Assembly: GCA_963665295.1 (NCBI GenBank)
Contig: OY762209.1
Location: forward strand, 2,496,001 to 2,560,000
DNA: 64,000 nt
Direction of reading: 5' to 3'
DNA from: Syntrophorhabdaceae bacterium
GTDB taxonomy: Bacteria; Desulfobacterota; Syntrophorhabdia; Syntrophorhabdales; Syntrophorhabdaceae
In this document: positions 494 to 61,852 of the stretch, in pieces
Numbering within the stretch: position 1 is the stretch's first letter
How the letters are laid out: the number at the start of each line of letters is the position of its first letter
Notes under the pieces: generated by a model
The model's database searches: none
Told to the model about the DNA's origin: nothing
The model's input: the letters and a program-made list of their open reading frames with translations, nothing else
Made by a program: the position numbers and the translations under genes

Positions 494-1456
494 TTAGCTC
501 GTGAGCACCTTGCGTTTGTATTCTATCCAGGCCGCGTGCAGGTAGACCGCGTCGCCCGCGTGGGCTTCCGGCATGAGCACAAGGGTCATGTTGGCGTTTG
601 TCTGATTTGGGGGGAGATCGGCGGCGAGGATCGTCGCGGTCAACTCCGCTTTTGCCAAGGCTATGAGGTTTGCGGCCGCTGCCGACGGGAAGCAGTCAAC
701 ATCGCTTTCGCCGAAATAGGCCTCTCCATCCATGTGGACCGTGTTCGCATCGGCGTCCTTGGACGTGAGGAAGTGGACCACCAGGTTGGCGGTAAGGTCC
801 ACGTCAGGGGGAAGAATGACCTGGGCCGCGATCTGGTCCGTGTTGCCTGCCGCCCATGCGAGCCTCATAGCGTCGCCGTCTCCGATCATCGAAAGGATGG
901 GGGTCGTGTCGATGGCGAGTACCCCGCCGTTACCTGCGGCGTTGATGAAGACACCGGCGGCGAGTTCACGGAAGGAAGTAAGGGGAACGGGAATGAACCC
1001 CTGAATGCTCTTGAGGTGCTGGTAAATCTCCTGAAGGGCGGCTTCCACGTCTGTGTGCGCGGTGAACTGGCCCGCGTCGCTGATCGAAACGTCGGAGGCG
1101 GGCGGCGCGAGGACGTGGTTGGGAAAGATAACCATAACTATCTCGGTAGCCGACGTTCCTGCCGCTTCAAGGCAGATGCCTGCGAGGGTGGTAGCCACGG
1201 TGACCTTCGTCATTTTGCCCGCGGAGGCATCCCAGTAACACCGGTCGCCGGGGGCGAAAGAGGTACCCGTCACCTTGGGCATGATGGCCTTGCCCAGGTA
1301 CACGTAGGAGTTGATCACATTCGCGAGGGCGTCATTAATCGCCACGAGGACGTTTCCGTTCGAGACGATGATATCTCCCGCCTCAACTTCGGCGGTGTGG
1401 GCGAGGATCAGAGTCCTCGCGTTCTGGATGCTGTCGGTGATGGTTCCTGTGGCCAT
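494..1456 (-). CDS. Capsid cement/decoration protein (DUF2190-like N-terminus) with long C-terminal extension
   Basis: N-terminal ~110 aa (VEAGDIIVSNG...MPKVTGTSFAPGDRCYWDAS...AGICLEAA) fits the DUF2190 pattern; lies between protease and capsid. Confidence 0.65.
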   Translation of the reverse strand: MATGTITDSIQNARTLILAHTAEVEAGDIIVSNGNVLVAINDALANVINSYVYLGKAIMPKVTGTSFAPGDRCYWDASAGKMTKVTVATTLAGICLEAAGTSATEIVMVIFPNHVLAPPASDVSISDAGQFTAHTDVEAALQEIYQHLKSIQGFIPVPLTSFRELAAGVFINAAGNGGVLAIDTTPILSMIGDGDAMRLAWAAGNTDQIAAQVILPPDVDLTANLVVHFLTSKDADANTVHMDGEAYFGESDVDCFPSAAAANLIALAKAELTATILAADLPPNQTNANMTLVLMPEAHAGDAVYLHAAWIEYKRKVLTS

Positions 1457-15277: not shown

Positions 15278-15676
15278 TTAGTCTTCGTGGGGGAGCATGA
15301 TGGTGATTACCGGCTCCGGGGTGTCTCCGGGGCCGATGACCGCCTTCAGGGTGACAAGCCTTTTCTGCTGCTCCTTCATGATGAAGTAGAGCCGGAAGTA
15401 CATAAGGTCCGTGGATGAATTGCGGGCGGCCACGCGGAACATCCAAAGGACATCCCAGAGGCGGCCCGCTTCGGACTGACCCCACTTTCTCGATCTCAGG
15501 TCGGGGACGATGTAGCCATGCCACAGGGCGCTCGTGAGCGCGACGGGGTACTTGATGCCCGCTTCGACGGCCGTTTCGGTGACGTCCACCAGGACGCCGT
15601 CCGCGATCGCCTCCGCGCGAGTGTAGGAATAGATCACTTCAAGGTCTTCGGGGTGGTTTGTGTCGTGTTCTGCCAT
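15278..15676 (-). CDS. DUF6573-like protein
   Basis: YSYTRAEAIADGVLVDV...GQSEAGRLWDVLWM...PEPVITIMLPHED; start moved to MAEHD (15676). Confidence 0.75.
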   Translation of the reverse strand: MAEHDTNHPEDLEVIYSYTRAEAIADGVLVDVTETAVEAGIKYPVALTSALWHGYIVPDLRSRKWGQSEAGRLWDVLWMFRVAARNSSTDLMYFRLYFIMKEQQKRLVTLKAVIGPGDTPEPVITIMLPHED

Positions 15677-15681
15677 GTTGA

Positions 15682-15822
15682 TCACCCCTCGATTACTTCC
15701 ACTGTTTCCTTCTTGCCGGTGTGCCACCTGATTTCCACATACCCGATTCTGAGGTTGTTCACGCATTCAAACCTGCCGTCCTTGATGTTTCTTTGCGCGG
15801 TGCTCATCTTGATCCTTTTCAT
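15682..15822 (-). CDS. 46-aa small protein, first ORF of the accessory operon
   Basis: Not in ORF track; AGGAGG RBS; MKRIKMSTAQRNIKDGRFECVNNLRIGYVEIRWHTGKKETVEVIEG. Confidence 0.55.
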   Translation of the reverse strand: MKRIKMSTAQRNIKDGRFECVNNLRIGYVEIRWHTGKKETVEVIEG

Positions 15823-15838: not shown

Positions 15839-15895
15839 AGTGGTTTCGGCCTTGGAAGCGGCCATTCTCAAACCCGGCACTACCGGGTGACCACT
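15839..15895 (-). ncRNA. Type III hammerhead ribozyme, U3-A8 core variant
   Basis: Minus strand AGUGG-UC-ACCCGG uagug CCGGGU-UUGAGAA-U-GGCC gcuuccaa GGCC-GAAA-CCACU; all three stems pair perfectly; GUC cleavage triplet. Confidence 0.75.
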
Positions 15896-15913
15896 GCCTG
15901 AGTTTTATTGTCA

Positions 15914-16215
15914 TGGTGGGTGGGAGGAATTGAACCTCCTTCACCCGGGGACCCGCCTCAGGTCTTTATTCCCCAGTCCGACTTTTGGGTGCGATTAAGC
16001 GGCCCGTGTTACCGCGCTGGGTGCGGTGTCCGTTTCCTGCCCTGCCGTGAAGGCCAGGGAAAGGCCGGAGCGATTTCTGTAGCCGGGCTGACTTGCGGTC
16101 CCGGCATCAACCCTTCCGCCGAAGGGGTTAACAGACGTGGAAGGCTGGACCGTCTCGCGGAGGGGGCGGTCGCTTGCCTGTTTCGTGGTCTGTTTCATTT
16201 TGTCTAATGATTTCA
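15914..16215 (-). ncRNA. Structured leader RNA ending in a tRNA-like minihelix with ACCA
   Basis: Consecutive hairpins, then GGGUG-AA-GGAGG-UUCAAUU-CCUCC-CACCC-A-CCA. Confidence 0.55.
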
Positions 16216-16257
16216 TATACTTATAGTATATTGTAACATACGGGCCTGGGGATGCAA
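16215..16257 (-). promoter_or_regulatory. Sigma70-type promoter with palindromic operator
   Basis: TTGCAT-16-TACAAT with extended TG; ATATACT-TAT-AGTATAT palindrome at 16215-16231. Confidence 0.6.
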
Positions 16258-16504
16258 GAGAAATAACCTGTTAAATCAATGACTTATACATTAAAGGTAA
16301 TCTGTTACCTCAGTTACGGGGCGTACTCGTGAGATACGCGGAGGTGGAGGGGCTGATAAATTTTATGGGGGATGGGGGTTAAAGCGGGCGTGTAGGGGTA
16401 GGTTTTGAAGTGAAAAAGGCGTGAAAAACGGGCAAAAAGGGTGTTTTCTGATATTTAGAATATTAAATAATAAGTTTAGTATGGTGCTATTTCGTGAAAA
16501 ACGC

Positions 16505-20043: not shown

Positions 20044-20337
20044 TTAGTCCTCCCTGAAGGTTCTGTTTTTGTTGTCGCCGTCTACTATGTTGCGGATCTG
20101 CCGAACTCGCAGGCCGTAGCGTTCGGCGAGTTCGGCGTGGTTGGCGCCGTTGAACTGGGTGATGATGCGCCGGTTGCGCTCTTCCCTGAAAAGGTCGTGG
20201 AGGTCGGGAATGGTGACGCGGAGACCCCCTAATTCTTCGATGATCGTTTTGATGACCGCCTGGCCGGAAGCGATACCGAAGTCGGCGGTAAGGCGGCGGA
20301 AGAGTCGGTCGAGGGCGTCACGGTTTTCAGACTTCAT
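20044..20337 (-). CDS. Mor/C-family transcriptional activator
   Basis: ELGGLRVTIP...ERNRRI...FNGANHAELAERYGLRVRQIRNIV; start MKSEN with AGGAGG. Confidence 0.85.
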   Translation of the reverse strand: MKSENRDALDRLFRRLTADFGIASGQAVIKTIIEELGGLRVTIPDLHDLFREERNRRIITQFNGANHAELAERYGLRVRQIRNIVDGDNKNRTFRED

Positions 20338-21418
20338 CGGGGTCACCTCCTGGGGGACGGTTTGCGGGGGCCGGTGAAGGCGTGGGGGAAGGGGGAAGCT
20401 TCCGGTGGCGGGGGCGGCTGGTACGGTCATCGTCATGTTCATCTATTATTTGTCTCCCTTCAAAAATGGAATTGAACTCGCGCCAGTAGACGGCGAGAGA
20501 GGGGTATGTCTGGTGGAGGCGTCCGCGCGTGGCGACGTAGCGGTCGGTGGTGATGATCGAGGCGTGGCCCAGGCGTTCGGCGATGGCGGGGGTATCGTAG
20601 CCCTTGATGTGGCGGAGGTCGTGGGCGTGTGCGGCGCGGAGCATGTGCATGGAGAGCTTCGGCTTGCGGATCTGGGCGCGGGCGGCGAGTGTTTTGAGGA
20701 ACGCGTCGGTGGCTGATGCGGTCAGGGGGTTGTGTTTCGGGCGGGCTCCTCGACCGTAGGAGATGATGAGGGGGTCGGAGGGGCGCGCGCCGTGGCCCAC
20801 GCGGGTGAGGTACCATGCGCGGAGGATGGCGGAGGGGGCTTTCCAGAGATAGACCTTGCGCCATTTCTCGCCTTTGCCGTAGACGTGGATGTCGTAGGAC
20901 TGGCCTTCTTCGACGGCGTTGGCGAGGGTGAGGGTGATGATCTCGCCGATCCGGAGGCCGCAGAAGGCCCCGAGGATGAGGATCACGGCGTCGCGGAGGG
21001 ATTTCTCGGTGATGGGGGGCGCGGCGGCGATGGTGAAGAGGCGGAGGATTTCTTCTTTGGTGAATCGCTGCACCAGGGTCTTGCGGACCTTGGGGAGCGG
21101 GATCTGTGCGGAGGGGTCGGCCGGGATGTGGCCTTCGTAGAGCATGTAGCGGAAAAATTTGCGGATGGCGATGAGCTTCGTGAGGCGGGTGTGGTTGTTG
21201 TTGCCCTGGTAGAAGCAATGCTCCAGAAACGCTTCTATGTCCTGTCGACTGGGGATAGAAGCGGGGGATGGAGACGGGGGCGCAGGGCGGACGGCTTGTC
21301 TGGAGGTCCACCAGGTGCAGAACTCGCGGACGCGGGACGTGTAGACCTTGGCGCTCACGTCGGTGAGGGCATTGAGGACCTTGAGGTGGCGTTCAAATCC
21401 GGGCAGATGATCAAGCAT
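20327..21418 (-). CDS. XerC/D-like tyrosine recombinase
   Basis: SAM-like N-domain; GLRIGE, GKGEK, HMLR, LGHASIITTDRY; start MLDHL with GGAGG. Confidence 0.9.
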   Translation of the reverse strand: MLDHLPGFERHLKVLNALTDVSAKVYTSRVREFCTWWTSRQAVRPAPPSPSPASIPSRQDIEAFLEHCFYQGNNNHTRLTKLIAIRKFFRYMLYEGHIPADPSAQIPLPKVRKTLVQRFTKEEILRLFTIAAAPPITEKSLRDAVILILGAFCGLRIGEIITLTLANAVEEGQSYDIHVYGKGEKWRKVYLWKAPSAILRAWYLTRVGHGARPSDPLIISYGRGARPKHNPLTASATDAFLKTLAARAQIRKPKLSMHMLRAAHAHDLRHIKGYDTPAIAERLGHASIITTDRYVATRGRLHQTYPSLAVYWREFNSIFEGRQIIDEHDDDRTSRPRHRKLPPSPTPSPAPANRPPGGDPDEV

Positions 21419-21769
21419 GGGTGGCCTCCGGGGCGCGAGATGCGGGAAATGGGGCAAAAATCCCCCCGGACCCCCCTCTTCCAACTAAGGGAGATACCGG
21501 ACTGAGAAAAAAACCGGATTTAAGGGACCGGGAAGAGAAAAGGATGGGCAATGCTGATGGGCAAAACCGAAAATGGTTTGAAAATAGGCTCCATTTTATA
21601 CCGGGTAATAGGGGGTGGGGTGGGGATGGAAACGGGAGCTTTTCGAGGGGGGGAGGGTATCCGGGCTCCTGATCGGGCTGCCTGAACTGGAGCGATTGAA
21701 AACTTACCGCAGTATTGTGAAAAAGGGATGGCTGAAAACCGTTGGAAACAGGTATCGGGACTGACCCCT

Positions 21770-34588: not shown

Positions 34589-35544
34589 TAGATAGCCCCC
34601 TTCTGGAAATCGGACTGCATCCGGCTCCAGGCTTCTTTGACCTCGTGCACTTCCATGGGAATGCAGAGATACTTCCATACCCCGTCGAGAATGATCATCA
34701 TGAGATCGATGAACGGCATGGGGGGCCGACCTCTGAGAATGGGGAGGACGGCAACGGCTATTACCTCAAGAATCGATGTGAGGATGATAGTTCTTGCCCC
34801 CAGGGCTCGCTTCAGCGCGAAGGCCTCATTGAAATCGTTTCGCTTGAATCGATGAAAAAGATGCAAAATAAGGGACCTGCGCGTGAGCGATGAGTGGGCG
34901 TAAGGTTCAGAACTGGTAAACAAGATCATGCCTTTCGGCGTAATCTCCTCCACGGCAGGCGACGGACCGGTTTCTTTCCCCATGGAACCCTCGGTCGCCA
35001 ACATCAAAGGCTTGGCCATCCTGAAACCGTCGAAGCCCAGCAGCGGAGTTTTCTCAAAGTCGCAAGAAATTAGTGAGGACGGAGCCAAGTAACTGTTCCC
35101 CGTCACAAGGGAGTTTATGATGCGAGCGGAAACAGTCTTTCCCGAGCCGATAGAACCTGATATGCAGAACAATGGCCGAGACAAGGCAAAATCGGCGAGG
35201 AAAATGGCGATCAGCCACGATATTACAAAGTAGATATCCGGCGGGGAACACGGAAGTGATTCCTGAAGAATCTCTTCCAGGAGAGCCATGCCTTCTTCCA
35301 TCGGGACGCTGTCATCAGGGTCCACGGGGGAGAAACGCACCGGCTGCCAGAGGAGGATACCTTCCTCATTGTAACCATTCGCCATGGGCCACACCCTAGA
35401 CTTTGTGCGTCGTCCGGTGTCGAGAGGGCCAATTCTGAAAATGTGCCGGTTGCGACTATTGACATTCACATAAACGACGCCCTTGCGGGTGTCCGTGTGA
35501 ATCCAGGAGGGTATCACCGTCATATCCGTTGGAGACCCCTTCAT
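34588..35544 (-). CDS. Stand-alone paralogue of the primase ATPase region
   Basis: WIHTD..VYVNVN..NGYNEEGILL and GSIGSGKT align with WIHTD..VYINLN..NGLNEDGVLL and GSTAAGKT of 23957-27025. Confidence 0.8.
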   Translation of the reverse strand: MKGSPTDMTVIPSWIHTDTRKGVVYVNVNSRNRHIFRIGPLDTGRRTKSRVWPMANGYNEEGILLWQPVRFSPVDPDDSVPMEEGMALLEEILQESLPCSPPDIYFVISWLIAIFLADFALSRPLFCISGSIGSGKTVSARIINSLVTGNSYLAPSSLISCDFEKTPLLGFDGFRMAKPLMLATEGSMGKETGPSPAVEEITPKGMILFTSSEPYAHSSLTRRSLILHLFHRFKRNDFNEAFALKRALGARTIILTSILEVIAVAVLPILRGRPPMPFIDLMMIILDGVWKYLCIPMEVHEVKEAWSRMQSDFQKGAI

Positions 35545-36275
35545 ATCTCGCCCACCCTTTGCATCTCTTCTTTCGTCGGACCCGTATAGACCACCGTGGA
35601 GTTGATCGATTTGTGACGGAGCTGACGCTGGGCGAGGAGAAGCGCCTTGTGGCGTTCCGTGTCGTCCAGGTGCTTCCTGTCGTTCATTATCCTTTGGCCT
35701 TTAGTGTGTCTCAGGGCGTGGGGAGTGTAGCGGGGGATACCGGACCGGGTGGTCCAGTAATCCATTAGATCGTTAAAGGAGCGGAGGGATAGCCTCCCGC
35801 CTTTCTTCGAAATGAACAGCGGAGAATCATCTTCAAGACCCTCCCGCCACTGTCGTTTGAGACGAAGAAAGTGCTTGAGTATGTCCTGCAGCTCGACGGG
35901 CAGGTAGACTTCCCCTACCGCCCCCTTTTCTGCGATCCGTTCGTCAACTATTATTTTGTCCTTCCCCATTACGTCGCCCACGTCGAGGGCGAGGACCTCA
36001 CCCCGGCGGAGTCCCGTGGACCGGCAGAGCTTCAAGAGCACGTAGTCGCGCTCCGCCTGTTTCCCTTTGGTGCCCTTGAGACAGTTAAAGAGGGTCTTCT
36101 CTTCCTGCACGGTGAGATAATTCGTCCCGGCCCGGCTCCGGCCCTGCTTCCTTTCGGGAGCCATTGCGGCGTCCAGGACAAAAACCTTGGGCGCGAGGGA
36201 GTGGAGAAGGACAGTCCAGGCGACGAGAGTTGCAGCCTGACTGGTAGGTGGGGCTTGTCTTGTTTCCGTGATCAT
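35541..36275 (-). CDS. Short tyrosine recombinase (catalytic domain only)
   Basis: TGLRRGE, HALRH, LRHKS, TVVY; no SAM-like N-domain. Confidence 0.85.
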   Translation of the reverse strand: MITETRQAPPTSQAATLVAWTVLLHSLAPKVFVLDAAMAPERKQGRSRAGTNYLTVQEEKTLFNCLKGTKGKQAERDYVLLKLCRSTGLRRGEVLALDVGDVMGKDKIIVDERIAEKGAVGEVYLPVELQDILKHFLRLKRQWREGLEDDSPLFISKKGGRLSLRSFNDLMDYWTTRSGIPRYTPHALRHTKGQRIMNDRKHLDDTERHKALLLAQRQLRHKSINSTVVYTGPTKEEMQRVGEI

Positions 36276-39643: not shown

Positions 39644-40834
39644 ATGTCGGTCAAATGGGACAAAAAACGGGAAAGGTTTATTTTGGACTATTACCCGAAA
39701 GGGGGCAAGGGTATACGAAAGAGGCTGACCCTTCCCGCCGTCGTGAGGGACCCTGCGGTTGCCGAGGCGATAGAATATGACCTCCGGCATCCATACGAAC
39801 ACTCCGAACTGCGCGCCGACAGCAAATCGACGGTGAATGACTTGTTTCCCGACTACCTGGTATATTATAAGGACCATCATTCTATCACCACCCACGACAA
39901 CATGCTCTGGACGTTCGGCAAGTATTTCGGTCCCATCCTCGGAGAAATACGGGCCACCGAATTAAACAAAGGGCACCTCTCGATGTACAAACGGATCAGG
40001 AAGGAGGGAAAGGTAAAGAACAGAACCGTGAATAAGGAAATGACCTATTTCATGGGGTTCGTCAATTGGTGCAGGAAAGAGCAGCAACTCCTCATGAACG
40101 ATTTCAAATATGAGCGCATGAAGGAAACAAAGCCGGAACACGTCATTCTCTCCATCGATGAAGCTATACGGTTCATCCTGTCCTCGGACCCCTACTACCG
40201 CGTATTTTTCCTCACCCTGTATTCTCTTGGACTGCGCTTTGCGGAGGCGACCGGGCTTAACTGGGAGGACCTTGACCCCGCGAATAAAAGGATTATCGCG
40301 AGAGGGAAGGGGGGCAAGGAAAGGGTGCTGCCCGTCTCGGACTGGCTTCTCTATGCTCTGAACTCAGCCAAGCCCAAGGACAAGAAGGCGGAAGGGTTGA
40401 TTTTCCGGAGCCGAATAACGGGAAGCAAGCTCGTCAACGTGCAAAAAGCCATTAACCGGGCCTGCAAAAGGGCCGGGATAGAAAAACATGTGCATCCTCA
40501 CCTTCTTCGGCACACGCTCGCCACCCATTTTATGGCCATGAAGATCAATATTAAAATCGTGCAGGAATGGCTCGGCCATTCCCGGGAGGATACGACTGCA
40601 AATATGTACATGCACGCGGAGATGGAACACCTGAGGACCGCCATGGATGCGCTGAATGTCCATCTCGATGAGCAATTCACCAAACAGACCTTCGATAAGC
40701 CGGAGACCCCGGTGAAGCGGAAATATACAGTATCAGAAAAGGTTCTGGAAGCCCGCCGCAAAGCGGCCCCTCTAGCAAGAGCGGCGAAATCAGCAAAAGT
40801 TACGTCTATTCCAACTGAAGGGAAAAAGGCCTAA
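39644..40834 (+). CDS. int: Prophage integrase (tyrosine recombinase)
   Basis: GLRFAE, GKGGK, HLLRH, LGHS...MY; adjacent to the tRNA fragment. Confidence 0.95.
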   Translation: MSVKWDKKRERFILDYYPKGGKGIRKRLTLPAVVRDPAVAEAIEYDLRHPYEHSELRADSKSTVNDLFPDYLVYYKDHHSITTHDNMLWTFGKYFGPILGEIRATELNKGHLSMYKRIRKEGKVKNRTVNKEMTYFMGFVNWCRKEQQLLMNDFKYERMKETKPEHVILSIDEAIRFILSSDPYYRVFFLTLYSLGLRFAEATGLNWEDLDPANKRIIARGKGGKERVLPVSDWLLYALNSAKPKDKKAEGLIFRSRITGSKLVNVQKAINRACKRAGIEKHVHPHLLRHTLATHFMAMKINIKIVQEWLGHSREDTTANMYMHAEMEHLRTAMDALNVHLDEQFTKQTFDKPETPVKRKYTVSEKVLEARRKAAPLARAAKSAKVTSIPTEGKKA

Positions 40835-40887: not shown

Positions 40888-40932
40888 CTCCGAAGCCAAA
40901 GGTCGTGCGTTCAAATCGCACCGGGCGCGCCA
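40888..40932 (+). repeat. att site: 3' half of tRNA-Arg(CCG)
   Basis: CTCCGAA anticodon loop, GTGCG-TTCAAAT-CGCAC T-arm, CGGGCGC-G-CCA; no 5' half upstream. Confidence 0.85.
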
Positions 40933-41135: not shown

Positions 41136-41496
41136 TTAGAAACTGCAGCGCACCCCGGCAAAGAAGGTCCTTCCCGCCTGAGGGTACCCGTTCTGATACT
41201 GGTAGCTTCGGTTAAAGAGGTTGTTCACCCCGCCTTCGAGGATAAAGTTCTTCATTGCCTCATACATGACTTTTCCATTCGCGACGGCTGCGGGGCCCGA
41301 TTCGTTGACCCCGTCGCTCGTGGTGGTCCGGCTGGAGGTATATTCAAAGGTCCCGAGGACACTCAAGCCCGTGAGCGGTGTCCGGTATTTCATGTTCGCG
41401 AAGACCTTATGGGCCGGCACATCCGTGAGCCTGACATAGGCGCCTGAAGACCTGTCGTTGCACCTGTTGAGATAGGTGTAGTTGAGTCCGCGTCCA
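41136..41496 (-). pseudogene. 3' fragment of TonB-dependent receptor gene
   Basis: 41155-41491 appears identical to 62515-62851; only the last codons differ (GVRCSF vs GVRYSF). Confidence 0.9.
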
Positions 41497-41887: not shown

Positions 41888-44803
41888 ATGAGGAAGGAAT
41901 TGGAACACTGCCGAAGAAGACGCGTCACCATGGCCTTATGGTTTTTCACGACATGCCTTCTCATTGCATCAATCCCCGTACATGCAAAGACAAAAAACCT
42001 TCTTGAGTTCAACTCCGGAAGCCATGTCCTGGGCTTTTCCTCCGGGTCCATGTACATGGCCTCCGGCACCCATGTGCTGAGGGTAGAGTTCGTGGGTGGG
42101 AAGTCGGTAGCCCCCGTCTCCAAGGAGGGACTCTCCTCCGATGGGAAGGCCCCTCCCTTGAGCAAGGTAATCTATCCGAACATATGGGACGGAGTGGACA
42201 TCGTCTATGAAGGAGCCAAAGGCTCCATCGTGAAGTCTACCTATACGGTGGCTGCGGGCAAGGCCCCCGGTTCCATCCGCCTCCGCTACAACCGGCCCCT
42301 TACCCTGGATAAGAAGGGCAACCTCGTGGTCCGCTTCGAGACGGGGGAAATGACGGAAAGCAGGCCCGTCGCGTGGCAGGTCGTGGAGGGCAAAAAGAAA
42401 CCCGTCATGGTGGCGTACAACCTCCAATCGGATAAGGAAGTGGGGTTTACGGTAAAGGATTATGACACAAGCCTGCCGCTGGTGATAGACCCCTATTTTT
42501 CGTGGAATACCTTCCTCGGGGGAAGCGGCACCGATTACGGATACGCCATAGCCGTGGATTCCGGCGGGAACATCTATGTGGCGGGAGCGAGCAGCGCGAC
42601 GTGGGGGACGAGCCCTGTAAGGGCATACACCTCAAACTATGATGCCTTCGTGGCCAAGCTGACGGCCGACGGGGTACTCGTCTGGAACACTTTCGTTGGG
42701 GGAGACGGCGTTGATTATAGTCAGGCGGTAACGGTCGATTCCGCAGGTAACGTCTATGTAGCAGGCATCAGCACCGCCGCGTGGGGCGCCCCGGTGAGGG
42801 GCTACACATCAGGCTACGACGGTTTCGCCGCCAAGCTTACTCCTGACGGCGCCCTGGTGTGGAACACCTTCCTCGGGGGGAAGGGCAATGACTGGGGAAG
42901 CGGTATAGCCGTGGATTTGGCTGGAAATACCTACGTGACCGGATACGGCGACGGCGCATGGGGCTCGCCGATAAGGGGCTACGCAGGGGGGAATTACGAC
43001 GGTTTCGCCGCCAAACTTACTCCTGACGGCGCCCTGGTGTGGAACACCTTCCTCGGAAGCTATTTCGAGGACCACGGCACCGCCATAGCTGCGGATTCAG
43101 GCGGGAACGTGTATGTAGCCGGGCGCAGCGTCGGATCGTGGGGTACGCCGGTCAGGGACTACACAGCAGGCTATGACGCCTTCGTGGCGAAACTGACGGG
43201 CAACGGCGCCCTTATCTGGACCACCTTCCTTGGAGGTTACGACAGCGACTGGGGAAACGCGATAACCGTGGACTCGAACGATTACGTCTACGTAGCGGGA
43301 GACAGCTATGCAACATGGGGACTGCCTAAGAGGCCTTACAATGCCGACCTTGACGCCTTCGCCGCCAAACTTACTCCTGACGGCGCCCTCATCTGGAACA
43401 CCTTCCTGGGGGGGAAAGGGGCCGACCGCGGCAAGGGCATCGCCGTGGATTCGAGCGGCAATGCGCATGTGACGGGATACAGCACTGCCGCATGGGGCGC
43501 CCCGGTGCGGGGCTACGCATCCGACGACGACGCTTTTGTCGCTGAACTGGGCACCACCGATGGAATGCTTTTGTGGAGTGCCTTTCTCGGAGGAAGTGGG
43601 TCCGACCAGGGGTGGGGCGTCGCCGTAGATTCAAGCGGCGGGGTTTGTGTGGCCGGATACAGCACTGCCGCATGGGGCGCCCCGGTGAGGGGATACACAT
43701 CAGGCTACGACGCCTTTGTCGCCAGGTTCGGCTATTCAGGCACCTTTTCCCTTTCTGTGGCAACGGCCGGCACCGGGAGCGGCTCGGTTACCAGCAGTCC
43801 CTCCGGCATCGACTGCGGCTCCACATGCGTGGGTTCCTTCTCCCTGGGGTCGTCTGTCACCCTCACGGCCAACGCAAACACGGGCTCCACCTTCCGGGGC
43901 TTCACAGGCTGCGACTCTACCTCAAACAACACCTGTAAGGTGTTCTTAACCTCCGACAGGATCGTCACCGCGACGTTTACCACCACCGGGGCCTGTACCT
44001 ACACTATCTCTCCCGCGAGGGCGTCCTTTGCCTACAAAGGGGGCAGCGCCAACGTCACCGTTCAGGCCACGGGGACGAACTGCGCAAGCCCGTTCGTCTA
44101 CGTGAGCGATACGTGGATAGGGGCGAGCCTCACCTCATTCAAAAACAACAAGGGAACGGTAAAAGTAACCGCCCCGGCCAACAATTCCGTCACGGAGAGA
44201 AAAGGCGAGGTGACCATAGAGACGAATACCTTTACCATCACCCAGGTGGGATCCCCTTGTTCGCTTACTTCCATCTCTCCCACGAGCAAGACCTTCACCG
44301 CCTCGGGAGGATCACACTCGTTCGCCGTCACCGCCACCACAGGCTGCGGGTGGAGTGTATTATTAAATGCGGACTGGCTCACTCCCTTCACCGTTACCGG
44401 GACGGGAACGGACTCCGTCTCTTATGCCGCCCCGGTGAACACCACCGGAAAGCAGAGAAGCGGGAAGATCACTGTGTTCCTCACCGATACCCCAACAAAG
44501 AAGAAGGTGTTTACGGCCAAGCAATCCCCCTGTACCCTCACCATCTCCCCGACTGCCGACACCTTTATCTCTGAGGGGGGATCGGGTTTGCTTATTGTCA
44601 CCGCCCCCGAGGGTTGCCCGTGGAGTGTGTCGTCAAATGCGGACTGGCTCACCACCGGGACCGGCTCGGGGAGCGGAGAGGTTTTTGTCTCCTACACGGC
44701 CCTTAAGAACACTACGGGGAAGCAGAGGAGTGGGAAGATCACCGTATTCCTCACCGACACCCCTTCCAAGAAGAAGGCGTGTACGGTGACGGAGAAGAAA
44801 TAG
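41888..44803 (+). CDS. Secreted SBBP-repeat beta-propeller protein with InlB-B-like and BACON domains (copy 1)
   Basis: Signal peptide; seven WNTFLGG...IAVDS.GNVYVAG...DAFVAKL blades; SSPSGIDCGSTC; C.W...WLT...NTTG..RSG. Confidence 0.9.
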   Translation: MRKELEHCRRRRVTMALWFFTTCLLIASIPVHAKTKNLLEFNSGSHVLGFSSGSMYMASGTHVLRVEFVGGKSVAPVSKEGLSSDGKAPPLSKVIYPNIWDGVDIVYEGAKGSIVKSTYTVAAGKAPGSIRLRYNRPLTLDKKGNLVVRFETGEMTESRPVAWQVVEGKKKPVMVAYNLQSDKEVGFTVKDYDTSLPLVIDPYFSWNTFLGGSGTDYGYAIAVDSGGNIYVAGASSATWGTSPVRAYTSNYDAFVAKLTADGVLVWNTFVGGDGVDYSQAVTVDSAGNVYVAGISTAAWGAPVRGYTSGYDGFAAKLTPDGALVWNTFLGGKGNDWGSGIAVDLAGNTYVTGYGDGAWGSPIRGYAGGNYDGFAAKLTPDGALVWNTFLGSYFEDHGTAIAADSGGNVYVAGRSVGSWGTPVRDYTAGYDAFVAKLTGNGALIWTTFLGGYDSDWGNAITVDSNDYVYVAGDSYATWGLPKRPYNADLDAFAAKLTPDGALIWNTFLGGKGADRGKGIAVDSSGNAHVTGYSTAAWGAPVRGYASDDDAFVAELGTTDGMLLWSAFLGGSGSDQGWGVAVDSSGGVCVAGYSTAAWGAPVRGYTSGYDAFVARFGYSGTFSLSVATAGTGSGSVTSSPSGIDCGSTCVGSFSLGSSVTLTANANTGSTFRGFTGCDSTSNNTCKVFLTSDRIVTATFTTTGACTYTISPARASFAYKGGSANVTVQATGTNCASPFVYVSDTWIGASLTSFKNNKGTVKVTAPANNSVTERKGEVTIETNTFTITQVGSPCSLTSISPTSKTFTASGGSHSFAVTATTGCGWSVLLNADWLTPFTVTGTGTDSVSYAAPVNTTGKQRSGKITVFLTDTPTKKKVFTAKQSPCTLTISPTADTFISEGGSGLLIVTAPEGCPWSVSSNADWLTTGTGSGSGEVFVSYTALKNTTGKQRSGKITVFLTDTPSKKKACTVTEKK

Positions 44804-44871
44804 AAGAATCGGCCCCTCCCTCCATGAGAGGGGCACAGAGATAGATATCACTTTACACAAAGGAGCGAGAG

Positions 44872-47800
44872 ATGACAAGAAAACCGACGTACCACCGAAC
44901 ATGGTTCACCATTACTCCATGCCTCTTCACGGCATGCCTTCTCGTTGCGATGCTCTTTGCCTCGGCACATGCAAAGACAGCCGACGGGAAGGACCTCCTC
45001 CAGTTCACCTCGAAGGGCCATATCCTCGGCTTCTCTCCCGGTTCCATGTATATGGCTTCAGGCTCCCATATGCTCAAGGTGGAGTTTCTGGGAGGAAAGT
45101 CCGTCTCTCCCGTCTCCAAGGAAGGACCCTCCTCCGATGGAAAGGCCCCTCCCTTGAGCAAGGTAACCTATCCGAACATATGGGACGGAGTGGACATCGT
45201 CTATGAAGGAGCCAAAGGCTCCATCGTGAAGTCTACCTATACGGTGGCTGCGGGCAAGGCCCCAGGTTCCATCCGCCTCCGCTATAACAGACCCCTTACC
45301 CTCGATGAGAAGGGCAACCTCGTGGTCCGCTACGAAACCGGCACTATCACGGAATCCAAACCCATTGCCTGGCAGGTCATAGAAGGAAAGAAGAAGCCCG
45401 TCATGGTGGCGTACAACCTCCAATCGGATAAGGAAGTGGGGTTTACGGTAAAGGATTACGATAAGAGCATTCCGTTGGTTATCGACCCCTCTTTTGGGTG
45501 GTACACCTTCCTCGGAGGCAGCGGTACGGATTATGGACAGGCCATAGCCCTCGATTCGAGCGGGAACATCTATGTGGCAGGCTACAGCAGCGCCGCATGG
45601 ACGGAGACCCCGGTCAGGGCCTACTACGGGTCGGGCACCGACGCCTTCGTGGCCAAACTGAATCCCGACGGGTCCCTCGCCTGGTACACCTTCCTCGGGG
45701 GCAGCGGCACTGATAACGGATACGCCATAGCCCTCGATTCGAACGCCAACATCTATGTGACGGGCCAGAGCAACGCCACCTGGGGCTCGCCGCTGCAGGC
45801 TTACACATCAGGCTATGACGCCTTCGTGGCCAAACTGAATGCCTCCGGATCCCTCGTCTGGCACAGCTTCCTCGGGGGGAGCGGAAGTGATTGCGGGCAG
45901 GCCATAGCCCTCGATTCGAACGCCAACATCTATGTGACGGGCCAGAGCAACGCCACCTGGAGATCGCCGCTGCGGGCTTACACATCAGGCTATGACGCCT
46001 TCGTGGCCAAACTGACCACCGACGGCAGTCTCGTCTGGCACAGCTTCCTCGGGGGCAGCGGCACTGATAACGGATACGCCATAGCCCTCGATTCGAACGC
46101 CAACATCTATGTGACGGGGCGCAGCAGCGCCACCTGGGAAAGCCCGGTCAGGGCTTACACATCAGGCTATGACGCCTTCGTGGCCAAACTGACCACCGAC
46201 GGAAGCTTCCTGTGGAACACCTTCCTCGGCGGCAGTAGTACGGATTACGGGCAGGCCATAGCCCTCGATTCCGGCGGGAACATCTATGTGGCAGGCTACG
46301 GCAGCGCTGCATGGACGGAGACCCCGGTCAGGGCCTACGACGGGTCGGGCACCGACGCCTTCGTGGCCAGACTGAATCCCGACGGGTCCCTCGTCTGGCA
46401 TACCTTCCTCGGCGGCAGCGGCACTGATTACGGACAGGCTATCACCCTCGATTCCGGCGGCAATATCTATGTGACAGGACGCAGCAACGCCGCATGGACG
46501 GAGACCCCGGAGAGGGCTTACACATCAGGCTATGACGCCTTCGTGGCCAGACTGACCACCGATGGCAACCTCACCGGCCATACCTTCCTCGGCGGCAGCG
46601 GCACTGATTACGGCTACGGCGTAGCCCTCGATTCGAGCGACAACATCTACGTGACGGGCTGCAGCAGCACCGCATGGACGGAGACCCCGGTGAGGGTCTA
46701 CACGTCGAGCTATGACGCCTTCGTGGCCAGGGTCATGTTCCCTCCGCTCAGGTCCATGTCGGTCTCAGTGACGGGTGCGGGGACCGGCACGGTGACGAGC
46801 AGTCCCTCGGGCATTAACTGCGGCTCGACCTGTTCGGCTGCTTTCAGCCAGGAAACGACCGTTACCCTCACGGCTGTTGCGGGGGCCCACTCGGTCTTCA
46901 CCGGCTGGACCGGAGGGGGGTGCAGCGGAAACGGAACGTGCGTAATCACATTGGCCGGCGAAGACATTACTGTGACCGCGGAATTCTCCCTGGTCACCTT
47001 CACGGTGGGCGCATCGGTTGAGGGCGGCCACGGGACCGTGTCCCCGGACACCCAGGCCGTGACCTACAACACTTCTGCGACGATCACCATGACCCCCGAT
47101 CCGGGATACCACGTGGCGGGCGTGAGCGACACGGTGCAGGAAGCGCGGGGCGCGAAAAAAGGCTCGGTCACAAAGAAGGCGGTAAAACCGGCCGGTTCCG
47201 CCCCCACCTATACCATAAACCGCGTTACCGCCAACCATGCCGTAGTAGTCACCTACGAGGCCGATCCCGAAACCCTCACCGCGAGGAAAACAGGCACGGG
47301 AAGCGGTACTCTCTCGGCCTCGGGCCTCACCTGCTCCGGCCTCACCTGCTCGGGGACATATGGGTATAATACTACGGTCACCATCACCGCCACTCCCGAT
47401 ACGGGTTCTTCCTTCACGGGATGGACCGGCTGCGACTCCACGTCGGGCCTCACCTGCGTGATCGCCATGACCGCCACCAGGAGTGTCACAGCCAACTTCG
47501 ACATAAGCAACTCATGCACCTACGCGGTCTCGTGGACGGACAAGGTTTTCGGCCACAAAGGAGGGAGCGCCAATATTACTCTCAGGGCCACGGGGGGCAA
47601 GACCTGCGCGAACCCCGAGGTTGCCTCGGAGGACGCCTGGGTAGGGGTCAGTCTGAGCGCGTTCAAGAACAACAAGGGCACTGTAAAGATAAGCGTTTTG
47701 CCCAACGACGGGGCGACGGAGAGGACCGGCACCGTGAGCATACGGGGTAACGCCTTCCACGTGGTCCAGGCCGGAGCGCCATGCTCCGTCTTCCTTCCTG

Positions 47801-48054
47801 CGACGAGCGACACCCTGGATGCAGAAGGAGGACCGCACTCCTTTGCCGTCAATGCCCCCACGGGCTGCGCATGGAGCGTATCATCATCGGAGGACTGGCT
47901 GACAGGCATCACCAGTGCGGGAACAGGGACGGGACTCGTCTCCTACATCGCCTCCGGGAATACCACGGGGAAGCAGAGGAGTGGGAAGATCACCGTATTC
48001 CTCACCGACACCCCTTCCAAGAAGAAGGTGTTTACGGTGAAAGAGAAGAAATAA
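44872..48054 (+). CDS. Secreted SBBP/InlB-B/BACON protein (copy 2)
   Basis: Same architecture; AAGGAG RBS. Confidence 0.9.
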   Translation: MTRKPTYHRTWFTITPCLFTACLLVAMLFASAHAKTADGKDLLQFTSKGHILGFSPGSMYMASGSHMLKVEFLGGKSVSPVSKEGPSSDGKAPPLSKVTYPNIWDGVDIVYEGAKGSIVKSTYTVAAGKAPGSIRLRYNRPLTLDEKGNLVVRYETGTITESKPIAWQVIEGKKKPVMVAYNLQSDKEVGFTVKDYDKSIPLVIDPSFGWYTFLGGSGTDYGQAIALDSSGNIYVAGYSSAAWTETPVRAYYGSGTDAFVAKLNPDGSLAWYTFLGGSGTDNGYAIALDSNANIYVTGQSNATWGSPLQAYTSGYDAFVAKLNASGSLVWHSFLGGSGSDCGQAIALDSNANIYVTGQSNATWRSPLRAYTSGYDAFVAKLTTDGSLVWHSFLGGSGTDNGYAIALDSNANIYVTGRSSATWESPVRAYTSGYDAFVAKLTTDGSFLWNTFLGGSSTDYGQAIALDSGGNIYVAGYGSAAWTETPVRAYDGSGTDAFVARLNPDGSLVWHTFLGGSGTDYGQAITLDSGGNIYVTGRSNAAWTETPERAYTSGYDAFVARLTTDGNLTGHTFLGGSGTDYGYGVALDSSDNIYVTGCSSTAWTETPVRVYTSSYDAFVARVMFPPLRSMSVSVTGAGTGTVTSSPSGINCGSTCSAAFSQETTVTLTAVAGAHSVFTGWTGGGCSGNGTCVITLAGEDITVTAEFSLVTFTVGASVEGGHGTVSPDTQAVTYNTSATITMTPDPGYHVAGVSDTVQEARGAKKGSVTKKAVKPAGSAPTYTINRVTANHAVVVTYEADPETLTARKTGTGSGTLSASGLTCSGLTCSGTYGYNTTVTITATPDTGSSFTGWTGCDSTSGLTCVIAMTATRSVTANFDISNSCTYAVSWTDKVFGHKGGSANITLRATGGKTCANPEVASEDAWVGVSLSAFKNNKGTVKISVLPNDGATERTGTVSIRGNAFHVVQAGAPCSVFLPATSDTLDAEGGPHSFAVNAPTGCAWSVSSSEDWLTGITSAGTGTGLVSYIASGNTTGKQRSGKITVFLTDTPSKKKVFTVKEKK

Positions 48055-48117
48055 AAGTATGAAGCCCCTCCCCGCGGGGGGCGCAGGAAGATAGATAATA
48101 CCTAAAAGGAGCAAGAG

Positions 48118-51100
48118 ATGAAAACAGCATATACACACTCCCCGCATTGCGGAAGACGTCCTGCAGCCCTGTTTCTTTTCCTGGCGTGCCTTCTTCTCTC
48201 CGTTCTTCTCATCCCGAAGGCCTATGCAAAGGAGGCGAATCTCCTCCAGTTCACCTCGAAGGGCCATATCCTCGGCTTCTCTCCCGGTTCCATGTATATG
48301 GCTTCAGGCTCCCATATGCTCAAGGTGGAGTTTCTGGGAGGAAAGTCCGTCTCTCCCGTCTCCAAGGAAGGACCCTCCTCCGATGGAAAGGCCCCTCCCT
48401 TGAGCAAGGTAACCTATCCGAACATATGGGACGGAGTGGACATCGTCTATGAAGGAGCCAAAGGCTCCATCGTGAAGTCTACCTATACGGTGGCTGCGGG
48501 CAAGGCCCCAGGTTCCATCCGCCTCCGCTATAACAGACCCCTTACCCTCGATGAGAAGGGCAACCTCGTGGTCCGCTACGAAACCGGCACTATCACGGAA
48601 TCCAAACCCATTGCCTGGCAGGTCATAGAAGGAAAGAAGAAGCCCGTCATGGTGGCGTACAACCTCCAATCGGATAAGGAAGTGGGGTTTACGGTAAAGG
48701 ATTACGATAAGAGCATTCCGTTGGTTATCGACCCCTCTTTTGGGTGGTACACCTTCCTCGGAGGCAGCAGCTCCGATTACGTGGGGGGCATAGCCATGGA
48801 CTCGAGCGGAAACTTCTATGTGGCGGGACACAGCAACGCCACCTGGGGCACGCCGCTACGGCCTTACACGGGCGGTTGGGACGTTTTTGTCGCAAAACTG
48901 ACTGCCGACGGGCAGCTCGTCTGGAACACCTTCCTCGGTGGGAGCGGTGATGACAGGGGAGGCGGCACCTTGCGCGGGGGGGGCGGCTTTAGCAGGGCGG
49001 GCGGCATAGGCCTTGATTCGAGCGGGAACATCTATGTGGCGGGCACCAGCGGGGCCACGTGGGGAGACTCGGTGAGGGGCTACACGGGAGGCAGCGATGC
49101 CTTCGTCGCAAAACTGACTGCCGACGGGCAGCTCGTCTGGAACACCTTCCTCGGGGGGAGCGGCACTGATTCCGGGACTGCCATGGCCGTGGACGCCGGC
49201 GGGAACGTGTACGTGGTCGGAGACACTGACACCGGGTGGGGAAATCCGATAAACCTCTTCGCGGGGCTTACCGACTGCAGTGTTGCCAAGGTGACGTCAG
49301 ACGGGCAGCTCGCGTGGAACACCTTCTTTGGGTCTTACCTTTTGGATTACGGGTACGGTGTAGCCCTTGACCGGAGCGGCAACGTCTATGTGCTCGGAAC
49401 GAGCCAGGGGGGCGGGTGGGGCTCGCCGGTGAGGGCCTACACGGGAGGCGCCGATGCCTTCGTCGCCAAGATGACTCCCGACGGGGCGCTCACCTGGCAC
49501 GCCTTCCTCGGGGGAAGCGATTGGGATCACGGGTACGGCATAGCAGCGGATGAGAGCGGCAACATCTATACAACGGGATTGAGCAAGAAGACGTGGGGCT
49601 CGCCGGTGAGGGCCTTCTCAGGCGTCCCGGGAAACAGTTGGGACGTCTTCGTCGCCAAGATGACTTCCGACGGGGCGCTCACCTGGAACACCTTCCTCGG
49701 CGGGGCGACTGGGTGTGAGGAGGGGTGGGCCGTAACCTCCGACCCGAGGAACGGCAAAGTCTACGTGACGGGACAGAGCAACTACACGTGGGGCTCGCCG
49801 ATACGGGACTACGGCGGCTACTACGGGGACTCCGACGTCTTCGTCGCCGGGCTGGCTGCCGACGGAGAATTGATATGGAATACCTTCCTCCAATCGGGCA
49901 GCAACTCCGGCCCAGGCGGCATAGCGCTTGATTCGCAGAGAGACATCTACATCGCGGGGCTGACCACCGGCACGAAGTGGGGCTCGCCGATACGGGCCTA
50001 CTCCGGAGGCTACGACGGCTTCCTCATGAAGATCAACCGGGACAAGGAAATTTCCGTCACGTTGACGGGCACGGGAACCGGCACGGTGACAAGCAGCCCC
50101 GCCGGCATCGACTGCGGCTCGATTTGTTCCGCCAGCTTCGCCGAGGGGACGACCGTTACCCTCACGGCCGTTGCGGGGGCGGTCGGCACGACCTTCTACG
50201 GCTGGACCGGCGGGGGATGCAGTGGAACGGGTACCTGTGTGATAACGATGGCCGGCGAGGACATTGCCGTGTCCGCGGAATTCTCCCCCACCATCTATAC
50301 GGTCAACGCATCCGTTTCAGGAGGCCACGGGACCGTATCTCCCGAGACACAGGCCGTTACCCACAAATCCTCGGTGTCCATTACCATGACCCCCGATGCG
50401 GGGTACCATATCGTGACCATCACCGACAATGTCCAGGAGGAGGCTCGGGGCGCGAAAAAGGGCTCAGGCACAAGAAAAGTGGTCAAACCGGTCCGCTCCG
50501 CGAAATCCGGTTCCGGTTATGTGTACAGCATAAGCAGCATCACCGCCAACCATACGGTAGCGGTTGCCTACGAGGCCGACCTCTATACCCTCACCGCGAC
50601 GAAAACGGGCGCGGGGACCGGCACCCTCACCGCGACGGGCCTTGCCTGCTCGGGGAATACGTGCTCCGGGACCTATCCGTACGGAGCATCGGTGACCATC
50701 ACCGCCACTCACGATGCGGGCTCTTCCTTCACGGGATGGACCGGCTGCGACTCCACGTCGGGCAACACGTGCGTGATCGCCATAACCGCCAACAAGAGCG
50801 TTGCCGCCGCCTTCGGCATAAGCGATCCGTGCACCTATACAGTCTCGTGGAAGGATAAGCCCTTCGCGCACAAGGGGGGAAGCGCCACCATCACCGTCAA
50901 GGCCACGGGGGCGAAGACCTGTACGACCCCCACCCCCTCGGCAAGCGACGCGTGGATAACGACGAGCATGGGCTCCTTCGCGAACAACAAGGGAACGGTG
51001 AGGGTGACAATCTCGGCCAACGACTCGGTCACGGAGAGGACCGGCGCCGTCACCATACGGGGCAACAGCTTTCAAGTCACCCAGGACGGAACGCCCTGCA

Positions 51101-51639
51101 CCCTCACCATCTCCTCGACCGGCAATACCCTCTCCCCGGCGGGGGGAACGGACTCCTTTACCGTCAATGCCCCCACGGGCTGCGCATGGAGCGTATCATC
51201 ATCGGAGGACTGGCTGACAGGCATCACCAGTGCGGGAACAGGGACGGGACCCGTCTCCTACACGGCCTCTGAGAATACCACGGGGAAGCAGAGGATCGGG
51301 AAGATCACCGTATTCCTCACCGACACCCCAACGAAGAAGAAAGTATTTACGGTGAAGCAGTCACTCTGCACCCTCACCACCTCCTCGACCGGCAATACCC
51401 TCTCCCCTGTGGGAGGAACGGACTCCTTTACCGTCAATGCCCCCACGGGCTGCGCATGGAGCGTATCATCATCGGAGGACTGGCTGACAGGCATCACCAG
51501 TGCGGGAACAGGGACGGGACCCGTCTCCTACACGGCCTCTGAGAATACCACGGGGAAGCAGAGGAGCGGGAAGATCACCGTATTCCTCACCGACACCCCA
51601 ACGAAGAAGAAAGTGTTTACGGTGACGGAGAAGAAATAG
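48118..51639 (+). CDS. Secreted SBBP/InlB-B/BACON protein (copy 3)
   Basis: Same architecture; duplicated terminal BACON. Confidence 0.9.
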   Translation: MKTAYTHSPHCGRRPAALFLFLACLLLSVLLIPKAYAKEANLLQFTSKGHILGFSPGSMYMASGSHMLKVEFLGGKSVSPVSKEGPSSDGKAPPLSKVTYPNIWDGVDIVYEGAKGSIVKSTYTVAAGKAPGSIRLRYNRPLTLDEKGNLVVRYETGTITESKPIAWQVIEGKKKPVMVAYNLQSDKEVGFTVKDYDKSIPLVIDPSFGWYTFLGGSSSDYVGGIAMDSSGNFYVAGHSNATWGTPLRPYTGGWDVFVAKLTADGQLVWNTFLGGSGDDRGGGTLRGGGGFSRAGGIGLDSSGNIYVAGTSGATWGDSVRGYTGGSDAFVAKLTADGQLVWNTFLGGSGTDSGTAMAVDAGGNVYVVGDTDTGWGNPINLFAGLTDCSVAKVTSDGQLAWNTFFGSYLLDYGYGVALDRSGNVYVLGTSQGGGWGSPVRAYTGGADAFVAKMTPDGALTWHAFLGGSDWDHGYGIAADESGNIYTTGLSKKTWGSPVRAFSGVPGNSWDVFVAKMTSDGALTWNTFLGGATGCEEGWAVTSDPRNGKVYVTGQSNYTWGSPIRDYGGYYGDSDVFVAGLAADGELIWNTFLQSGSNSGPGGIALDSQRDIYIAGLTTGTKWGSPIRAYSGGYDGFLMKINRDKEISVTLTGTGTGTVTSSPAGIDCGSICSASFAEGTTVTLTAVAGAVGTTFYGWTGGGCSGTGTCVITMAGEDIAVSAEFSPTIYTVNASVSGGHGTVSPETQAVTHKSSVSITMTPDAGYHIVTITDNVQEEARGAKKGSGTRKVVKPVRSAKSGSGYVYSISSITANHTVAVAYEADLYTLTATKTGAGTGTLTATGLACSGNTCSGTYPYGASVTITATHDAGSSFTGWTGCDSTSGNTCVIAITANKSVAAAFGISDPCTYTVSWKDKPFAHKGGSATITVKATGAKTCTTPTPSASDAWITTSMGSFANNKGTVRVTISANDSVTERTGAVTIRGNSFQVTQDGTPCTLTISSTGNTLSPAGGTDSFTVNAPTGCAWSVSSSEDWLTGITSAGTGTGPVSYTASENTTGKQRIGKITVFLTDTPTKKKVFTVKQSLCTLTTSSTGNTLSPVGGTDSFTVNAPTGCAWSVSSSEDWLTGITSAGTGTGPVSYTASENTTGKQRSGKITVFLTDTPTKKKVFTVTEKK

Positions 51640-58374: not shown

Positions 58375-58402
58375 GAACCCGGTCCAGGCGAAGGAGGTTT
58401 TT

Positions 58403-61400: not shown

Positions 61401-61852
61401 TGGGAGATGCCCTGGTAAAAATAGACCCAGCAACGGGAGCAGGAACGCCGATAGGGTCCATAGGGTATAACGCGAACTATGCCCAGGGCATGTCCTTCGA
61501 GAAGCAGTCGGGAGTGCTCTATCTCGCAGCGTACAATGTGGATAACGAGTGGAACTCCCGGGCGCAACTCCGCGTTGCGGACACTTCCACGGGCAACACC
61601 GAGGTGATAGGCGCACTTCCGGCCGGTGCCGACGTTGACTGCCTCTCCTTCGCCACAGCGATGGAAGCATCATGGCTGAAAGAGTCTCCCACGAAGGCGA
61701 CCCTCGGGCCGAAGAAGACCATATCCATCGACGTGACCTTCGACGCCACAAACCTCAGCCCAGGGACCTATGGCGCGAGACTCCTGGTTGCCCGCGGGAC
61801 GCCATATGGTAGCCTCGTTATCCCCGTAACCATGAAGGTAACCGCCAAGTAG
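58403..61852 (+). CDS. Secreted S8 subtilisin-family protease with carboxypeptidase-regulatory-like and propeller domains
   Basis: IDTG, HGTHTMG, GTSMAAPHVAG triad; signal peptide; true start probably ATG 58413. Confidence 0.95.
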   Translation: MRYHVSIAAFVFSILTLVFFSHTAVAGVKIDAGLQQAIEKDETTGYIMYFKARPSLTKASSMEWKARGEFVANSLKDAATISQAGVKTYLEGRDVRHRSFWIGNMIVVEASDLATFSGLKAFPEIDRIGKIPDIILYEPVEISTDPTVSEGVEVNLSHIKADQVWETLGVTGSGIVVANIDTGVRYTHDALVSGYRGSSSGTYDHNYNWWDPYGEYTEPTDPNGHGTHTMGIMVGNDGSNRIGVAPGAQWVACRGCSTNACTTTALLECAQWVIAPWDLSKSVTDTSKRPHVVNNSWGNCGRTYDPWFQDAVDAWLAAGIYPVFSNGNAPNCGYDTPPGCYTVGNPARYGNVTGVGATGKNNGQYESYSNWGPTDRADGVNPDGYQYVKPQVLAPGTGIRSSYYSGDSAYATMSGTSMAAPHVAGLVALMYSACSDFTRVYADVETIMERTAVSIPYASGCGGEGTDNVPNNATGWGEIDAFAAVREVLSRCGDSGSVTGNILSAKTKKAIEGATLTVGGRTVATDGNGTYTATFVVLGQQTAVATADGYYDQINMVTVTKGGISTANFSLRPKSLVSLTGKVTDGSSGGWPLYAKLNASDGKATVSAVTNPLTGVYTMKLYRDTDYTIRISSTGYATAEAVVTTTGKFSPRNFTLTVGSDCSAPGYARSGDSCNALSGGLVTGLVRDANTKGVLSDFVVNSSVASATTESNGRYVLFASPGSNVITANPPGLLNYGPASRRVTVKAARTVGLDLSVPAALFEGPKGLSITMAPGSTRKMTLKLKNAGDFGASFVIFDYPVTTSTSALAQTKVSLPPSDYKAAADAEPTSAGPAPRPQRTSTSRSASAAVSTLTGYPAYAIDLLHGSAFGRFSSDSPGTWTIIGSLPGDDYYGGDFVKNDFSKLYVIKNGDSTLYTIDTTTGAATAIGKATAYNSEMWTGMTTSVDGTLYASSTDISRSTLYTINPATGAATIIGQITNGPGIIDIAIDREDNMYGLELVGDALVKIDPATGAGTPIGSIGYNANYAQGMSFEKQSGVLYLAAYNVDNEWNSRAQLRVADTSTGNTEVIGALPAGADVDCLSFATAMEASWLKESPTKATLGPKKTISIDVTFDATNLSPGTYGARLLVARGTPYGSLVIPVTMKVTAK

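Follow-up and report, generated by a model that had tools for sequence, protein, structure and literature searches.

A tRNA-like hairpin as the putative T-loop-capped tip of the last stem in a hammerhead-bearing prophage leader RNA

The window analyzed here, a stretch of 64,000 nucleotides from a Syntrophorhabdaceae bacterium, carries on its minus strand a short hairpin with the look of a tRNA acceptor stem and T-arm followed by an encoded ACCA, and the question arises as to whether this hairpin is a free tRNA mimic, a remnant of a tRNA, or a part of some other RNA. An earlier note had read it as GGGUG-AA-GGAGG-UUCAAUU-CCUCC-CACCC-A-CCA, and the minus strand at 15946-15914 was found to have exactly that sequence. 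The 5-bp T-stem with a canonical 7-nt T-loop on a 5-bp lower stem, as described there, was confirmed from the sequence and the fold. The two elements are as follows:

15918..15946, minus strand: T-loop hairpin that forms the module D tip, its lower stem and T-stem of 5 bp each being separated by a 2-nt bulge and closed by a 7-nt T-loop (sequence, fold, and homologues)
15914..15917, minus strand: ACCA, unconserved; on the 3′ side of an internal loop once module D forms (homologue comparison)

Folded alone, the 33-nt element formed 5 bp, a 2-nt bulge, 5 bp, and a 7-nt loop with the ACCA unpaired (−16.5 kcal/mol; z −2.9), and in four longer contexts, the whole leader included, both stems showed pairing probabilities of 0.96–1.0. 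A descriptor consisting of a canonical T-arm, a lower stem of 4–7 bp, and N+CCA, which was composed post hoc with the element already seen, had a single match on both strands of the 5.5-Mb genome, i.e., the hairpin at 15946-15914. The same descriptor gave one match in 294 Mb of order-3 Markov sequence, corresponding to ∼4e-4 per window. The same letters are present in public DNA contigs, the best holders of which are perhaps the window's own source; among the public runs listed for the element, none was of RNA. The suggestion that an RNA ends at the encoded ACCA was not supported, as no terminator-like site was found on the minus strand and the transcript is predicted to continue; the predicted RNA end lies 25 nt beyond the CCA. 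The helix consists of 5 + 5 bp with a 2-nt bulge, i.e., 10 bp, as against the 7-bp acceptor stem and 12 bp in total of a minihelix, and the acceptor-like stem has no G3-U70 pair. The comparisons described below indicate that the hairpin is real, that its shape is maintained, and that it is one piece of a larger RNA than first described.

The window spans part of a 64-kb prophage, with head genes to the left and the primase, repressor, and integrase genes to the right. The prophage is integrated in tRNA-Arg(CCG), the 3′ part of which is repeated over 43 bp at the prophage ends:

40888..40930, plus strand: prophage attachment site, a 43-bp copy of the tRNA-Arg(CCG) 3′ part (repeat; integrase at 39644-40834)

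The hairpin is located 25 kb from this site, inside the prophage. Comparison with the host tRNA 3′ ends, proposed in the earlier note, revealed no exact match, the longest exact match among the 52 tRNA/tmRNA calls being 11 nt; the best identity of the T-arm to the host was 15/17, with three tRNAs (Gln, Lys, and Tyr). An attachment scar or a duplicated host tRNA 3′ end was ruled out by the 25-kb distance and the 11-nt limit. The lower stem and ACCA equal the host tRNA-Ala acceptor minus two pairs, G3-U70 being among those missing, and this likeness was not common to the homologues. The view that the hairpin is a maintained structure rather than an eroded tRNA 3′ end was thus borne out by the lack of an exact host 3′ match, the attachment site lying elsewhere, and homologues with different stem letters. 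ARAGORN found no tRNA in the window. A permuted tmRNA was also rejected on the grounds of model score (17 and 15 bits, where the cut-offs are 84 and 47), downstream 5′ acceptor strand, and tag frame, and the host has an ordinary tmRNA. The prophage carries three proteins of the tyrosine-recombinase family (20327-21484, 35541-36275, and 39644-40834). Beyond the prophage lie six paralogous ORFs of 970–1170 aa with internal repeats (41888-61852), partly bounded by a 360-bp direct repeat (41138-41496 and 62498-62857).

The hairpin was found to lie within a ∼400-nt leader of a prophage operon, comprising a promoter, an upstream ORF (uORF), two conserved motifs, a long stem, and a hammerhead. Sequence comparison established the anatomy of this leader, its conservation and covariation, and the conservation of its frame:

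16230..16257, minus strand: putative sigma-70-type promoter, −35 at 16257-16252 and extended −10 at 16235-16230 (pattern in leaders)
15995..16216, minus strand: leaderless or nearly leaderless uORF of 73 codons, crossing motif A and stopping within motif B (frame conservation)
16074..16132, minus strand: motif A, two adjacent hairpins, outside Rfam (covariation)
15966..16022, minus strand: motif B, a segment strongly conserved in sequence, with the uORF stop codon (alignment)
15897..15962, minus strand: module D, an outer stem leading through a conserved internal loop to a middle stem and a variable tip (14 leaders)
15839..15895, minus strand: predicted type III hammerhead with a variant (U3-A8) core and an additional U following A9 (descriptor, fold z −2.9, homologues)
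15278..15822, minus strand: first genes of the operon, a 46-aa ORF and DUF6573 (gene calls)

Further on, the operon encodes a beta-clamp-like protein, DUF488, and two ParB-like proteins. The beta-clamp-like phage protein (12751-14442) has all three Pfam domains and is also present downstream of homologous leaders.

Homologous leaders were gathered by DNA, pattern, and model searches, with identical copies and two chance matches removed. The leader region was present in 3 of 68 genomes of the family, in one further genome of the order, and in viral and metagenome contigs. This gave 13 distinct leaders with motif A, and a fourteenth was split over two contigs of genome G042 (L059 and L004). Several leaders are flanked by the same neighbours as in the window. 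In a related provirus, the same promoter is joined straight to the first gene without a leader, and hence the leader is an optional accessory cassette. Chance matches discarded after inspection of the sequences amounted to 12/14, 1/4, and 1/16 in separate searches, plus two weak model matches. A search of 400 genomes of the phylum yielded five non-self matches, and neither of the two inspected was a leader. The viral contigs had no match to the minihelix+CCA pattern or to the module D pattern, the latter being matched in 3 of 96 genomes, and no match was obtained among phage or plasmid records. The same hammerhead and linker, without the other leader parts, precede a different gene in G075 (L024, 1483-1568).

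The promoter pattern was observed at the equivalent place in 11 of the 14 leaders, a simple scanner having missed the window's own promoter, and transcription is predicted to start near 16223. An ATG near the promoter, with the frame open across motif A, was found in 12 of the 14 leaders in spite of several spacer lengths, and in all eight leaders that contain motif B the stop codon occupies an equivalent position within it, in one of them as TAG one codon later. P0002, a nearer uORF relative, was traced to no DNA record. As the peptide varies where the motif A stem covaries, translation of the uORF itself seems to matter more than the peptide product. Motif A was fully paired (100% of cells) over 13 distinct sequences, with four pairs changed on both sides, the kin among these sequences being non-independent, and motif B showed 83% column identity in the alignment of eight leaders. 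The fold of the whole leader was modestly more stable than that of shuffles (z −1.5). Rfam gave no match in the window at gathering score and only weak tmRNA, snoRNA, and plastid matches at the E-value level; motifs A, B, and D matched no Rfam family. Motifs A and B showed no evident fit to the twister, pistol, HDV-like, and glmS ribozymes. Motif A may act in put-like antitermination, and a literature search for such a link found nothing. A 10-nt motif is repeated at 16285 and 16213 (minus strand), flanking the promoter; it occurs nowhere else in the prophage, a similar word lies just after the left attachment site, and the repeat could be an operator. The presence of a D-loop-like GG in motif B goes together with that of the T-hairpin, a contrast provided by one lineage.

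The outer stem of module D was paired in 77 of 84 cells across the 14 leaders, with the 3′ anchor picked by best pairing, which favours structure, and at one of its positions UA, CG, GC, AU, and UG were all seen. The first three pairs of the middle stem form in 13 of the 14 leaders, and the tip above it ranges from 5 to 36 nt. The tips of the window, L003, and L004 (35, 36, and 35 nt) share one architecture, in which a 7-nt loop closes a 5-bp stem that sits, across a 2-nt bulge on the 5′ side, on a lower stem. As regards covariation in homologues, a check suggested in the earlier note, the two closest positional homologues (L003 and L004) keep this architecture although their stem letters differ. 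Shuffles yield it at 0.002–0.004 each. The pairs of the three tips were counted by script, the MAFFT alignment being out of register, and the close positional homologues number only three, two of them from one genus. In the other 11 leaders, the same stem carries a tip that is shorter or unrelated, and the tip is therefore exchangeable; in L002, L005, and L044, it has a 3-bp stem and a 7–8-nt loop. These three leaders also have another T-loop-like 3-bp hairpin just upstream of motif A, inside the uORF. The lower stem is followed by ACCA in the window, AUCA in L003, and AUCU in L004, and neither the L003 loop nor the L004 loop conforms to UUCRA. A maintained encoded CCA end could not be upheld, as CCA was found in one of the three close homologues and in one of the six slot-bearing leaders. 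With ViennaRNA, the probability of the outer stem rose from 0.02 in the window leader before cleavage to 0.57 in the 5′ product after it, and was 0.98 for the isolated stem. The uncut leader was predicted to favour a local hairpin (0.5–0.7) that leaves ACCA outside module D, and this competing hairpin is mismatched in 7 of the 14 leaders. Relaxed T-loop hairpins numbered seven in five of the 14 leaders (6.2 kb), compared with ∼0.16 expected, the lineages being non-independent. L004 contains, at ∼1222-1297 (minus strand), a second canonical T-arm in a tRNA-like element before the first gene; for ARAGORN to call it a tRNA, the threshold has to be lowered, and at minimum energy it does not form a cloverleaf.

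The window hammerhead, which goes unmentioned in the earlier note, has three stems round the core, a UH site, the 3-8 pair, and GAAA, in agreement with type III, and its predicted cut lies between 15889 and 15888, at a site 25 nt downstream of the hairpin. The U3-A8 pair is recorded in the accessible text of PMC3088659 as a natural, active hammerhead variant. Among the homologues, 11 distinct copies were 95.8% paired, with seven pairs changed on both sides. The hammerhead descriptor matched 9 of 15 loci, and three others have core variants; stem II is long in L051, L053 carries a deletion, and L004 gave no hammerhead match. The window hammerhead was absent from the Rfam matches with E up to 10, and three homologues scored 35–42 bits against RF00008, below the gathering score of 48.5. 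A single hammerhead with many cut sites was considered and rejected, as one other 11-of-12 site was found, within a gene and at about the chance level. Loop I (15872-15883 in the window) is invariant in eight copies and could pair over 4–5 nt with the start of loop II (15852-15859), a possible loop–loop contact.

From this arrangement, we infer transcription of the leader, hammerhead activity, and a role for the hairpin. The explanation we put forward, at roughly even chances and on the strength of sequence comparison, is that the last stem of a hammerhead-released prophage leader RNA ends in the hairpin as a tRNA-like tip capped by a T-loop. Transcription would begin near 16223, ribosomes would read the leaderless uORF and halt in motif B, and the hammerhead would cut after 15889, setting a ∼335-nt leader RNA apart from the operon mRNA, which would be left with a 66-nt 5′ end. 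Module D would close the 3′ end of the released RNA, with the T-hairpin capping module D and most likely serving as a folding or stability domain or as a docking surface for a T-loop reader, in preference to a free CCA-ended minihelix. The shared tips, the exchangeable tip, the unconserved ACCA, the outer stem predicted at 0.57 after cleavage, the covarying hammerhead with its natural U3-A8 variant, and the accessory nature of the cassette are consistent with this explanation, and since the hairpin belongs to a longer leader RNA and its CCA is not kept, it is probably not a free tRNA decoy. Several observations speak against it: the outer stem is predicted at 0.02 in the uncut leader as against 0.5–0.7 for the local hairpin; the canonical T-loop and ACCA of the window exceed the tRNA-likeness that a mere cap needs; the A-Y-C after the stem in all three close homologues could pair with the GGU of RNase P; and the close homologues are few (three, two of one genus) and the window hammerhead is unmatched by Rfam.

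The A-Y-C bears on the main alternative, possible but doubtful, in which the hairpin is a processing signal for host RNase P, as in phage C4 RNA. A cut 5′ of G15946 would set the 3′ end of the upstream RNA and, together with the hammerhead cut, give a 58-nt RNA, maybe trimmed to the 33-nt minihelix. A T-arm with an acceptor-like stem and RCCA is a model substrate of RNase P in the accessible text of PMC11143913, and the RNase P RNA of the host is of type A, its L15 GGU having been identified by eye. All three close homologues have pyrimidines before the stem and A-Y-C after it; the window has the T-loop, G+1, a pyrimidine at −1, and RCCA, and the homologues share only the A-Y-C. The recurrence of relaxed T-loop hairpins in the (related) lineages is in keeping with such a signal, as is the second T-arm element of L004, the leader that has no hammerhead match, although that element is called a tRNA only at the lowered threshold and does not fold as a cloverleaf at minimum energy. 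The 10-bp helix does not conform to the 12-bp ruler given in the accessible text of PMC11143913, the loops of L003 and L004 are off UUCRA, the CCA is unconserved, and most leaders have no T-hairpin at this slot. It is less likely again that the hairpin is a captured piece of a tRNA or tmRNA 3′ end drifting in the variable tip, its tRNA look inherited and unused. The 15/17 identity of the T-arm to the Gln, Lys, and Tyr tRNAs, the tRNA-Ala-like lower stem and ACCA, and the weak permuted tmRNA matches are what such an origin would leave behind, but the 5′ strand pairs locally, the homologues pair with different letters, and neither the distant attachment site nor the 11-nt longest host match points to a capture.

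The earlier note had favoured a free minihelix that would engage synthetases, the CCA-adding enzyme, or defence proteins directed at tRNA, as their decoy or their substrate, and this is considered very unlikely. The window does have a canonical T-loop and ACCA, in an accessory cassette that heads the operon and is missing from the related provirus. Against this, the CCA occurs in one of six slot-bearing leaders, the G3-U70 pair is lacking, and two further processing steps would be required. Anticodon nucleases would find no anticodon arm in the hairpin. A free minihelix with an encoded CCA is not supported by the 10-bp helix, the unconserved CCA, and the embedding in a longer conserved stem, and of all that the earlier reading proposed, the CCA-ended decoy holds up least well. 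In a combined scheme, which we regard as distinctly unlikely, RNase P and the hammerhead would excise the 58-nt RNA, which would be trimmed to a shortened, non-chargeable minihelix decoying acceptor-end readers, with relatives swapping tRNA-like modules into the slot. A chance hairpin is the least probable: the descriptor was post hoc and the whole-leader fold is modest, but the rate of ∼4e-4 per window and the architecture kept in two homologues largely refute it.

Hammerheads that precede phage operons are known, and this family offers a testable case by virtue of its optional cassette, frame-conserved uORF, uncatalogued covarying motifs, exchangeable T-loop tip, and cassette-less relative. 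Should the hairpin be cut by RNase P as well, two ribozymes would together mature a natural, minimal mimic of a tRNA.

A literature search over mostly open papers turned up neither this leader nor a naturally occurring minihelix of a phage. According to the accessible text of PMC3088659, hammerheads occur in prophage and phage transcripts, and HHphage precedes the first early gene of HF1/HF2; the leader may by analogy work like these hammerhead-punctuated prophage transcripts. The hammerhead described here is alike in its position just upstream of the first gene of a prophage operon and in its U3-A8 variant, and it differs in that its 5′ piece would, once released, include a T-loop hairpin along with a frame-conserved uORF and uncatalogued motifs, no such leader being described in that part of the paper, the supplements of which may include these hammerheads (PMC3088659). 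Processing could possibly resemble that of the C4 antisense RNA of phages P1/P7, which is likewise a structured phage RNA inside a longer transcript and a candidate RNase P substrate starting with GG, as far as the accessible parts of PMC5320573 and PMC11143913 describe it. C4 itself was rejected, with no Rfam C4 match and without three stem-loops; C4 is an RNA of ∼77 nt that is made up of three stem-loops and carries antisense loops (PMC5320573, accessible text), in contrast to the one bulged hairpin here. No antisense complement above the chance level lay near the hairpin, the longest being 7 nt, equalled or exceeded in 149 of 200 shuffles. With the RNase P model substrates and tRNA minihelices, the hairpin shares the acceptor-like stem stacked on a T-stem, the T-loop, and RCCA, and it differs from them in that its helix has 10 bp and a 2-nt bulge where theirs has 12 bp, that it is embedded in a longer RNA, and that its CCA is unconserved (PMC11143913, accessible text). 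Theta ribozymes are similar in placing a self-cleaving ribozyme 3′ of a tRNA-type phage structure; as presented in the accessible part of PMC10879173, they are HDV-like and flank whole tRNAs, whereas here a putative hammerhead lies 25 nt past a partial tRNA-like hairpin.
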